Source: Sphingomicrobium sp. (GTDB taxonomy: Bacteria > Pseudomonadota > Alphaproteobacteria > Sphingomonadales > Sphingomonadaceae). From it: a DNA stretch of 64,000 nucleotides. A program made the position numbers and the translations under genes. A model generated the notes under the pieces. It was not told the DNA's origin. It made no database searches and worked only from the letters and a program-made list of their open reading frames with translations. This document shows, piece after piece, positions 16,751 through 19,701 of this stretch (position 1 is its first letter; the number at the start of each line of letters is the position of its first letter). Where the stretch lies: positions 4,558 to 68,557 of the forward strand of contig JBPCOC010000048.1 in NCBI GenBank assembly GCA_051000635.1. The letters run 5' to 3'.

Positions 16751-16888
16751 CTACGGCCGCCTCCGGTCGCTCACACCTTCGCAGTCACGCAACGGTCCCC
16801 CTAGCTCGGCGACATGAGTGCTAGCCCGCGCCGCGCCTTGGGCGCAAGCGCTCTTGCGGGCGCGCCTTCTCCAGCCCACATCGAAGCA

Positions 16889-17209
16889 ATGATGACGCGT
16901 GAGCAGTGGCGAGCCTTCGCCGGCAGCAAGGCGATGCGGATCGCGCTGTTCGTCACCGGCCTGGTGCTGATCGTCATTTCCCCGCTCCTCGGCGCGCTTC
17001 CCGGGCCGGGCGGGATTTTCGTCTTCGCGGCCGGTTTGGCGCTGGCCTTGCGCAACAGCGAGTGGGCAAAACGCAAATATGTTCGCTTCAAACGCTGGCA
17101 GCCGAAGGCTGGCCACTGGACCGACTGGGGATTGCGCCGCAAAAGCGCCCGGCGCAGGCATGATCTCCGCAAGGAGAAGGAGCGTCAGGACAAGGCCTCG
17201 GCTGATTGA
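16889..17209 (+). CDS. Small membrane protein, PGPGW-like (start could be 16814)
   Basis: Two hydrophobic segments around LPGPGGI, with a basic tail. Confidence 0.7.
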   Translation: MMTREQWRAFAGSKAMRIALFVTGLVLIVISPLLGALPGPGGIFVFAAGLALALRNSEWAKRKYVRFKRWQPKAGHWTDWGLRRKSARRRHDLRKEKERQDKASAD

Positions 17210-17234
17210 CTTTGACGCCCCCCTCCCTTACTTG
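17206..17234 (+). promoter_or_regulatory. Possible sigma70 promoter of the rpmH operon
   Basis: TTGACT-N17-TACTTG about 55 nt upstream of the ATG pair. Confidence 0.3.
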
Positions 17235-17287
17235 CGCGCGCAACCGAGGCTGCCCGAACGGCGGCCCTTTTTCTTTGATTTTGAGGC

Positions 17288-17761
17288 ATGAGCGATGAAG
17301 CGCACCTTTCAGCCGAGCAATCTCGTCCGCAACCGCAGGCACGGCTTTCGCGCGCGCATGGCAACTCCGGGCGGCCGCAGGATCCTGAACGCGCGCCGCC
17401 GCCAGGGCCGCAAGAAGCTCAGCGCGTAGAGCGCCCAGGCACAATCAGGAAACGCAAGGATTTCCTGGCTGCGAACGCCGGACGGCGCGCCGCCACGCCC
17501 GGATTCGTGCTTCTCGTCCGCAACCGCAACGACGGCGACCCGCTCAAGCGCGTCGGATTCACCGTCAGCCGCAAGGTCGGCAATGCAGTCGCCCGAAACC
17601 GGATGAAGCGGCGCTTTCGGGCGCTCGCGCGCGAGATCATTCCCGCACACGGTTACTCGGGGTCGGATCATGTGATGATCGGTCGCGCCGGTGGAATCGA
17701 GCGCGAGTTCCCCGCCTTGCGGAGCGATTTTATCCGTGCGCTGGAGCGAGCGGCGCCGTGA
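17288..17761 (+). CDS. rnpA: Ribonuclease P protein component, apparently N-terminally extended across rpmH
   Basis: Core IRKRKDF...[24 protein letters not shown]. The only in-frame ATG/GTG/TTG upstream of the core is ATG 17288. Confidence 0.88.
17295..17429 (+). CDS. rpmH: 50S ribosomal protein L34
   Basis: Manual translation: [48 protein letters not shown] lies 8 nt upstream. Confidence 0.97.
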
Positions 17762-17967
17762 CCCGGCTGCTGATCTGGATTTGCCGCGGGTGGCAGATGG
17801 GACCGTCTCGCGTGCTTCCGCCGAGCTGCCGGTACCAGCCGAGCTGCTCGGCCTATGCGATCACTGCACTCTCGCGCTATGGCGCCCTTCGCGGGAGCTG
17901 GCTTGCAGTCAAGCGGCTCTCGCGATGCCATCCATGGGGGGGCCAGGGCTACGACCCGGTTCCCTAA
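17758..17967 (+). CDS. yidD: Membrane protein insertion efficiency factor
   Basis: [11 protein letters not shown]...[14 protein letters not shown]. Confidence 0.95.
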
Positions 17968-17991: not shown

Positions 17992-19701
17992 GTGAACGAC
18001 AATCGGAACATGATCCTCGCGATTGTGCTGAGCGCATTGGTGCTGATCGGCTGGAGCATGCTTTCCGAGCGTTTCCTTCCCAGCGCCCCGCCGCCGGCAC
18101 AGCAGGTCGACGACGGCCAGCCCCAGCCAAGTCCGCAGGCGCAGGCCGGTCCTGTGGAGCGCACGCCCCAGAAGATTCGCTCCCGGCAGGAAGTCCTGGC
18201 GGAGAGCCCGCGGGTCCAGATCCGTACGCCGAGCCTGAGGGGCTCGATCAACCTTACCGGCGCCCGGATCGACGACCTGGTGCTGCTCAGGGAGCGGCAA
18301 AGCATGGCGAAGGATTCGCCGCCGGTCAGGCTGCTGTCACCCGCCGGCGCTCCGGAGGCGTATTTCGCGAGCTTCGGCTGGACCGGACAGGGGGTGCAGG
18401 TTCCGACGCCTACGACCCGCTGGACCGCGAGCGCTCCTGTCCTTCAGCCCGGACAGCCGGTCACGCTGACATGGTCGAACGGCGAGGGCCAAACCTTCGA
18501 GATCATCATCGGAGTCGATGAGAACTACCTGTTCACCGCGCAGCAGCGCGTAGTGAACAGCGGTTCGGGAGCCGTCGCGGTGCGGCCCTACGGCCTCATC
18601 AGCCGCGCCGACGAATCGCCGGACCCCGATTATTGGACCGTGCATGTCGGCCCAATCGGCGTGTTCAACGATGCCGCCACTTACGACATCGACTGGTCGT
18701 CCCTCGAGGGCGGACAGGTCGAACGGTTCGACAGCCGTGGCGGCTGGCTCGGCTTTAGCGACAAATATTGGCTGACTGCGCTTGCTCCAGCAGGAAATCC
18801 GCAGATCGCCGCCAGCTTTACCGGTACTCCGGGCGGCGGATTCCAGGCGGATTATGCCGAGCAGCCGCAGATCGTGCCCCCCGGCGGCGGCGTGTCGACC
18901 GAAACCCGGTTGTTCGCCGGGGCGAAGGAAAAGGCGCTCCTAGACCGCTATGAGGGCCTTGGAATCCCGAAGCTGTCGAAGTCGATCGACTGGGGCTGGT
19001 TCGAATGGTTCATGCGGCCGATCTTCGACGTCCTGAACTGGCTGTTCGAAGCGACCGGCAATTTCGGACTCGCGATCATCTGCCTGACCGTGATCGTCCG
19101 TCTGATCATGTTCCCGATCGCCCAGAAGCAGTTCAAATCGTTCGCTGCGATGCGCAAGGTCCAGCCGAAGCTCAAAGCGCTCCAGGAGAAGTTCAAGGAC
19201 GACAAGACCAAGCAGCAGCAGGCGATGCTCAAGCTGTACAAGGAGGAGAAGATCAACCCGGCCGCCGGCTGCCTTCCGATCCTCCTCCAAATCCCGATCT
19301 TCTATGCGCTGTATAAGGTGCTTCTTGTTTCGGTCGAAATGCGCCACCAGCCGTTCGCGTTGTGGATCAAGGACCTGTCCGCCCCCGATCCGCTGACCCC
19401 GGTCAACCTTTTCGGCCTTCTACCCTTCACTCCGCCGCTGTTTCTCACCATCGGAATCCTGCCGATCCTGCTCGGCGTTACGATGTGGCTCCAGTTCAAG
19501 CTCAACCCGCAGCAGCTGGACAAGACGCAGCAGCAGATCTTCATGCTGATGCCGTGGGTGATGATGGTGATCCTGGCGCCGTTCGCGGCCGGGCTAGTTC
19601 TCTACTGGGTGACGTCGAATGTGCTTACGATCGCCCAGCAATGGTGGCTGTACCGCCGCTTCGGGCTGCACCTGTCCGACACCCATCCGGTCAAGACCTG
19701 A
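17992..19701 (+). CDS. yidC: Membrane protein insertase YidC
   Basis: IDWGWFEWF, NFGLAIICLTVIVR, GCLPILLQIPIFYALY and WIKDLSAPDP. Confidence 0.96.
   Translation: MNDNRNMILAIVLSALVLIGWSMLSERFLPSAPPPAQQVDDGQPQPSPQAQAGPVERTPQKIRSRQEVLAESPRVQIRTPSLRGSINLTGARIDDLVLLRERQSMAKDSPPVRLLSPAGAPEAYFASFGWTGQGVQVPTPTTRWTASAPVLQPGQPVTLTWSNGEGQTFEIIIGVDENYLFTAQQRVVNSGSGAVAVRPYGLISRADESPDPDYWTVHVGPIGVFNDAATYDIDWSSLEGGQVERFDSRGGWLGFSDKYWLTALAPAGNPQIAASFTGTPGGGFQADYAEQPQIVPPGGGVSTETRLFAGAKEKALLDRYEGLGIPKLSKSIDWGWFEWFMRPIFDVLNWLFEATGNFGLAIICLTVIVRLIMFPIAQKQFKSFAAMRKVQPKLKALQEKFKDDKTKQQQAMLKLYKEEKINPAAGCLPILLQIPIFYALYKVLLVSVEMRHQPFALWIKDLSAPDPLTPVNLFGLLPFTPPLFLTIGILPILLGVTMWLQFKLNPQQLDKTQQQIFMLMPWVMMVILAPFAAGLVLYWVTSNVLTIAQQWWLYRRFGLHLSDTHPVKT

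Follow-up and report, generated by a model that had tools for sequence, protein, structure and literature searches.

In the window analysed here, a stretch of 64,000 nucleotides from a Sphingomicrobium genome, rnpA, the gene for the protein component of RNase P, is very likely translated from the ATG at position 17288, passes through the whole of rpmH, which encodes ribosomal protein L34, in the -1 frame, and continues into the conserved part of RnpA, which would make the two genes a nested pair of the type known from Thermus. The start region reads GAGG (17283-17286), C (17287), ATG (17288), AGCG and ATG (17295), on the forward strand like all features described below. The GAGG is the single Shine-Dalgarno core of the region and lies at a distance of 1 nt to the rnpA ATG and of 8 nt to the rpmH ATG. 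The second ATG opens rpmH (17295-17429, 44 aa), and the first opens a frame of 157 codons plus the TGA at 17759-17761, the long form of rnpA (17288-17761), which is defined by the list of open reading frames, by Pfam and TIGRFAM matches, and by the conservation of an ATG at position -7 relative to the rpmH start, in the following ATG(-7). rpmH lies wholly within rnpA; rnpA uses the -1 frame of rpmH or, seen from rnpA, rpmH is shifted by +1 nt. Residues 1-51 of RnpA (17288-17440) comprise the N-terminal extension, with 47 codons that overlap rpmH and a linker of 11 nt that contains a lineage-specific in-frame insertion of 9 nt. Residues 52-157 (17441-17758) form the core with the RNR motif, as delimited by Pfam, TIGRFAM, the pLDDT values of a structure model and matches to solved chains. 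The stop codon of rpmH (TAG, 17427-17429) ends 11 nt ahead of the first RnpA-homologous residue, so that there is no room for a separate rnpA ribosome-binding site. From 17288 to the core no in-frame ATG, GTG or TTG is present; the first one is the GTG at 17507, which is situated inside the core, past the conserved stretch with the RNR motif. These results bear out a preliminary description of the sequence, which had reported the geometry of the start region with L34 in the 17295 frame, the two distances of the single GAGG, the frame that stays open from 17288 through rpmH into RnpA, and the lack of ATG, GTG and TTG on this way. The stretch 17288-17302, ATGAGCG followed by ATGAAGCG, resembles an rpmH start that was duplicated imperfectly in tandem, and the upstream ATG may have arisen in this way. 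In addition, a TGA (17289-17291) is found in the rpmH frame two codons ahead of the rpmH ATG.

The identity of both proteins is clear from profile matches. L34 matches PF00468 over its full length (positions 1-44 of 44, 78.5 bits) and TIGR01030 with 77.9 bits, in both cases above the cut-off, and residues 52-155 of the long form match the RnpA profiles PF00825 (72.1 bits, cut-off 22.3) and TIGR00188 (59.3 bits, cut-off 38.35). The profile scores, the RNR motif in the core together with an alpha-beta fold, the synteny rpmH-rnpA-yidD-yidC, and the occurrence as a single copy identify the product as RnpA; in a genome-wide search the gene at 17288-17761 was the sole PF00825 or RnpA homolog of the genome. 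In an AlphaFold2 model residues 51-157 have pLDDT values of about 90-96 and the element order H-E-E-E-H-E-H, while residues 1-49 are devoid of secondary structure and have block-mean pLDDT values of 43-61. Nine solved RnpA chains that were matched by sequence align only to query residues 47-155. The first approximately 50 residues are therefore predicted to be a disordered tail, the sequence of which would be dictated mostly by the coding of L34, and the remainder is predicted to adopt the normal RnpA fold.

The arrangement is conserved throughout the genus. The genus was surveyed with the RnpA core alone as a query, which is unbiased toward the long form, and rnpA was recovered in 21 of the 24 other genomes, in 20 of them together with a complete rpmH 5' end. 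All 20 loci have an ATG at -7 (ATGAGCGATGAAG; codon 2 is AAC in one locus) and rnpA in an open -1 frame, and in all 20 the rpmH stop is only 2-11 nt away from the core, with no ATG, GTG or TTG between them. The upstream ATG and the stop-free overlap, the two features that the preliminary description had singled out for comparison, are thus both kept in close relatives. The other families of the order have a different layout: in nine genomes (loci L022-L030) rpmH and rnpA are separated by a spacer of 60-150 nt, often with a terminator-like element in it, rnpA has its own ATG, GTG or TTG, and its frame is random (0, 1 or 2) when compared with that of rpmH.

Within the family Sphingomonadaceae, a scan with overlap peptides, which is hence biased to the nested form, placed 80 loci by record title, all of which were nested (80/80); by these titles the nested relatives belong to Sphingomicrobium, Sphingomonas, Sphingobium, Parasphingopyxis, Rhizorhapis, Allosphingosinicella, and others. 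The loci L031-L140 were found with a full-length query, and therefore this sample also favours nested loci. An unbiased sample was obtained by locating rpmH in one genome per genus, which yielded 104 usable genera. ATG(-7) is present in 28 of them, and the overlap frame is stop-free in all 28, right up to the core, so that the layout extends to many genera of the family, the level at which the preliminary description had suggested a check. In comparisons that are not corrected for kinship, genera with ATG(-7) differ from the others in three respects: rnpA is in the -1 frame in 28/28 versus 36/76 (Fisher test, 1e-7), the overlap frame is free of stops in 28/28 versus 58/76 (0.003), and a canonical start codon downstream of the rpmH stop and ahead of the core occurs in 6/28 versus 64/76 (4e-9). 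In the same sample TTG is found at -7 in three genera and GTG in one, and three further genera have an in-frame start upstream of rpmH at -22, -25, and -46, respectively, and no downstream start. Taken together, nested forms account for about 27-34% of the genera, i.e., roughly one quarter to one third of the family. A class-wide pattern search, which detects only ATG-start rpmH genes with a consensus N-terminus and is thus an incomplete survey, found an ATG at -7 in 1 of about 398 alphaproteobacterial genomes outside the family. For independent contrasts of ATG(-7) against a downstream start, a tree of L34 and the RnpA core offered only two supported pairs and is too weakly resolved; the best tree requires 15 state changes, a number that is probably inflated by the poor resolution.

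Two additional groups of genera were seen in the family. In 12 genera (L157, L161, L169, L180, L186, L198, L205, L216, L219, L226, L239, and L244) rnpA uses the +1 frame of rpmH, which is open from nucleotide 4 of rpmH, and GTG, TTG or ATG candidates exist inside rpmH or at the core; these loci may represent a partial-overlap variant. Six genera (L156, L158, L210, L214, L231, and L243) lack an in-frame start upstream of rpmH as well as any ATG, GTG or TTG ahead of the core. In L231 the ATC at the Ile of 'TIR' is the sole near-cognate option, and in L243 there is no near-cognate codon whatsoever before the RnpA core. Assembly errors, exotic start codons, or recoding are possible explanations for this group, and the six genera make it probable that rnpA has non-canonical starts in some part of the family.

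An open -1 frame alone is no more than would be expected by chance, because it is shared by most family loci that lack ATG(-7). In a pooled set of 222 distinct loci, the overlap frame was open in 135/135 loci with ATG(-7) and also in 62/87 (71%) of the loci without it. The latter value would fit to the view that the long open reading frame is a by-product of the GC-rich sequence, and that the upstream ATG is a part of the ribosome-binding region of rpmH that is unrelated to the expression of rnpA. This view would also be in line with the distribution of T at synonymous sites of rpmH at which a T would create a stop codon in the overlap frame, because a depletion is visible even in the loci without ATG(-7), where such a T occurs at 28/487 sites (5.7%) compared to 25.5% elsewhere. 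However, the depletion is complete in the loci with ATG(-7), with 0/776 versus 12.9% T at the other synonymous sites, although about 22 stop-creating T's are expected when the ratio of the loci without ATG(-7) is used for scaling. The unbiased subset gives the same picture, with 0/231 in loci with ATG(-7), where about 5-6 are expected, and 18/420 in loci without it. Not a single stop was found in overlap or linker of the 135 loci with ATG(-7), ATG(-7) was never found together with rnpA in another frame (0/28, compared to 40/76 genera with rnpA off the -1 frame among those without ATG(-7)), and it is negatively associated with a canonical downstream start. The linker from the rpmH stop to the core varies between 2 and 77 nt and has at least 13 distinct lengths, all of which are 2 mod 3 and stop-free.

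The sequence around the two starts argues in the same direction. In the nested loci the seven nucleotides ATGAGCG are almost invariant, positions -12 to -9 are GAGG or AAGG in the 135 loci, with a G at -10 in 130/135, and position -8 and the region upstream of -12 are variable. Non-nested genera have unrelated spacers between the Shine-Dalgarno sequence and the rpmH ATG, and therefore rpmH itself does not need ATGAGCG. A mere by-product of base composition is thus highly improbable. The combination of ATG(-7), rnpA in the same frame, and the lack of a downstream start exceeds chance, and the absence of overlap-frame stops in the relatives, the in-frame linkers, and the negative association with downstream starts show, in counts that are not corrected for kinship, that the nested layout is maintained by selection against such stops.

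Public databases are inconsistent with respect to the start of rnpA. The records of relatives at NCBI and JGI list a 'ribonuclease P protein component' of 154-157 aa, in contrast to the NCBI record of the window's own genome, in which RnpA (P0080) has 105 aa and begins with M followed by RKRKDF, i.e., the ATC at 17444-17446 was read as the start codon. The same ATC had been named in the preliminary description, as a codon near 17445, as the alternative start. If RnpA began there, ribosomes that finish L34 at the TAG at 17427-17429 would re-initiate at this non-canonical codon, and neither the upstream ATG nor the open frame would be relevant, or they would yield a minor isoform only. A protein of this size has some appeal, because with the N-terminus M-RKRKDF it comes close to typical RnpA lengths; the solved structures have 113-137 aa, and their alignment begins at about query residue 47-53. 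An AGG is located 4 nt upstream of the ATC, weak re-initiation would likewise result in a low RnpA:L34 ratio, and the family contains the genus L231 with an ATC as the sole near-cognate codon at this site as well as five other genera without canonical starts. However, ATC is found at the homologous position in only 11/20 relatives of the genus, and CTT, CTC or CTA in the rest, and the frequency of ATC is nearly the same in nested (27%) and non-nested loci (23%). The codon behaves as an ordinary codon for Ile or Leu, and relatives have not kept it in a form that could serve as a start. Furthermore, in 15/135 nested loci, of which five belong to the window's genus, the stretch from the rpmH stop to the core does not contain any ATG, GTG, TTG, CTG, ATT, ATC or ATA. 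For these two reasons, the comparison with relatives does not support the 105-aa call from ATC 17444 for the window genome. A start at the ATC would also leave unexplained why ATG(-7) is invariant, why the frame is open in 135/135 loci, and why stop-creating T's are absent from all 776 sites. We therefore regard it as unlikely, although a minor short isoform of RnpA may exist in the window.

Restart of ribosomes after termination on rpmH can also be viewed at the level of the family. A CTG overlaps the stop codon (CTGA) in 69/135 nested loci, those that end rpmH with TGA, which makes a restart conceivable there, and a CTGA restart is possible in these relatives. In the other 66/135 nested loci rpmH ends with TAA or TAG, and the junction reads CTA, GTA or TTA, without an overlapping CTG; in the genus, the junction is CTAG, CTAA, TTAA, GTAG or TTAG in 18/20 loci. 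For the window itself a CTGA restart was ruled out, because the junction is GCG-TAG, the codon in the rnpA frame is GTA, and no start-capable codon overlaps the stop. The only candidate in the window is the unconserved ATC, 15 nt downstream of the rpmH stop, and in 114/135 nested loci the stretch from the rpmH stop to the core is devoid of canonical starts.

The -1 relation of the two frames and the lack of an intervening stop are also what would be expected if programmed -1 ribosomal frameshifting within rpmH gave rise to RnpA as an L34-RnpA fusion protein, and the family genus L243, without any start-like codon ahead of the core, could be accommodated in this way. However, when rpmH was read by eye, a slippery heptamer of the type X XXY YYZ was not found in the rpmH frame. 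In addition, frameshifting leaves the conserved ATG(-7) unaccounted for, and the L34 sequence would end up buried in RnpA as part of a fusion. We therefore consider frameshifting to be extremely improbable, and initiation at ATG 17288 remains the reading that is followed here.

The best precedent for such a start is found in Thermus. As far as the account given in PMC9841429 of the work of Feltens et al. (2003, PNAS 100:5724) goes, the Thermus start region is AUGGAUG behind one GGAGG, rpmH is fully nested in rnpA, and the upstream rnpA start is described as experimentally demonstrated. In 2022 the Thermus rnpA-rpmH genes were said to be the only described bacterial pair of overlapping genes that is translated from one ambiguous ribosome-binding site (PMC9841429). 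The locus in the window shares the essentials of this arrangement: the rnpA start precedes the rpmH start by a few nucleotides and follows the same Shine-Dalgarno sequence, rpmH is nested out of frame, and the outer frame is continuous into RnpA. Measured against the same account, further similarities are the -1 frame relation, the N-terminal extension of RnpA of about 50 residues, the proposal of one Shine-Dalgarno sequence for both genes, and the presumed role, which is to make little RnpA beside much L34. The description as a Thermus-like gene-in-gene arrangement is thus supported by the identical frame relation, the nesting, and the conservation in relatives. There are also differences. 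The offset is 7 nt here (ATGAGCGATG) and 4 nt in Thermus (ATGGATG), i.e., -7 versus -4, and the rnpA ATG abuts the Shine-Dalgarno sequence with a spacing of 1 nt. Thermus belongs to the Deinococcota, whereas the host here is a member of a mesophilic alphaproteobacterial family, in which the layout is polymorphic, being present in about 27-34% of the genera.

The layout can also be compared with the conventional rpmH-rnpA operon of E. coli, B. subtilis, and the other families of the order. Both share the gene order rpmH-rnpA-yidD-yidC and, as predicted for the nested locus, a low abundance of RnpA compared to L34, but the nested locus lacks both the spacer of 60-150 nt and the separate rnpA start of the conventional operon. 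The ambiguous sites AUGUG and GUGUG of E. coli (PMC9841429) are similar in that two nearby starts in two frames share one ribosome-binding site; they differ from the present case, where 7 nt separate the starts and an essential, conserved protein is encoded in each of the two frames. A literature search for rnpA and rpmH in combination with sphingomonads or nesting retrieved no described case besides Thermus. The ordinary layout in the sister families and the result of the class-wide search, with a single ATG(-7) among about 398 genomes from outside the family, point to an origin of the nested layout that is independent of Thermus, and the normal spacers and own starts in the other families of the order fit to the earlier suggestion of a possibly independent solution.

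The sequences upstream of the pair are in agreement with a start at 17288. A promoter-like element, TTGACT and TTACTT with a spacer of 16 nt (17206-17233), was found by reading the sequence and is the putative promoter of rpmH and rnpA. It overlaps the stop codon of the open reading frame that directly precedes it (16814-17209), the translation of which (131 aa) appears to have a hydrophobic middle part and a tail rich in Arg and Lys. A promoter scan with the E. coli consensus did not find anything, and the proposed promoter is based on motif conservation, as relatives contain homologous motifs of the form 'TTGAC..CTAACCGCGC / CCTATCGGCGC' upstream of a leader hairpin. This GC-rich hairpin (17248-17266), detected with seven pairs in a terminator scan, is followed by a run of T's (together 17248-17276), which ends 6 nt ahead of the Shine-Dalgarno core. 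Hairpin and T-run are kept across the Sphingomonadaceae, in nested and non-nested loci alike, and compensatory changes occur in four of five predicted pairs. An Rfam search of the region 16900-17900 gave no match for the hairpin, which is a candidate attenuator, terminator, or 5' stabiliser in the rpmH leader. Because the promoter-like motif and the hairpin both precede the Shine-Dalgarno core, ATG 17288 is located well inside the predicted mRNA. Downstream, yidD (17758-17967; PF01809, 94 bits) begins with a GTG that overlaps the rnpA stop (GTGA), which suggests that yidD is translationally coupled to rnpA. It is followed by an open reading frame for a YidC-like membrane insertase (17992-19701), which was taken from the list of open reading frames and named by synteny and by reading of its translation only.

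These features can be combined to a simple model of expression. rpmH and rnpA would share one mRNA leader and one Shine-Dalgarno sequence, the GAGG, and initiation at ATG 17288 would yield an RNase P protein of 157 aa. Studies on spacing in E. coli have revealed that a distance of 1 nt between Shine-Dalgarno sequence and ATG is very unfavourable for initiation. With a normal distance of 8 nt to the rpmH ATG and of only 1 nt to the rnpA ATG, many starts on L34 and few on RnpA are to be expected, and thus most ribosomes would begin L34 and a small minority RnpA. The competition of the two ATGs for one Shine-Dalgarno sequence would set the L34:RnpA ratio, and translation of the operon would continue into yidD by coupling via GTGA. 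The excess of L34 over RnpA in E. coli is about 130:1 (PMC9945441), and the excess that is expected from the geometry of the start region matches this value. The rnpA start that is pressed against the Shine-Dalgarno sequence could represent a built-in divider of roughly 1:100.

If this is correct, the Sphingomonadaceae provide a second, independent, and family-wide case of nested rpmH and rnpA genes, this time in mesophiles, and the layout is present in genera that can be cultured, among them Sphingomonas, Sphingobium, and Parasphingopyxis. The competition between two start codons and a fixed ratio of a ribosomal protein to RNase P would thereby become directly testable, and natural variants are at hand, namely ATG, TTG and GTG at -7, TGA and TAA junctions, and non-nested sister genera. 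The case also exposes a problem in the annotation of rnpA starts in public records. Beyond that, it is possible, although we propose it only tentatively, that the family as a whole represents a natural experiment in rnpA starts, in which nested, separate, +1-overlapping and startless forms exist side by side, the lineages have switched repeatedly between them, and a long isoform of RnpA from ATG(-7) coexists with a short one from a restart at ATC or CTG.
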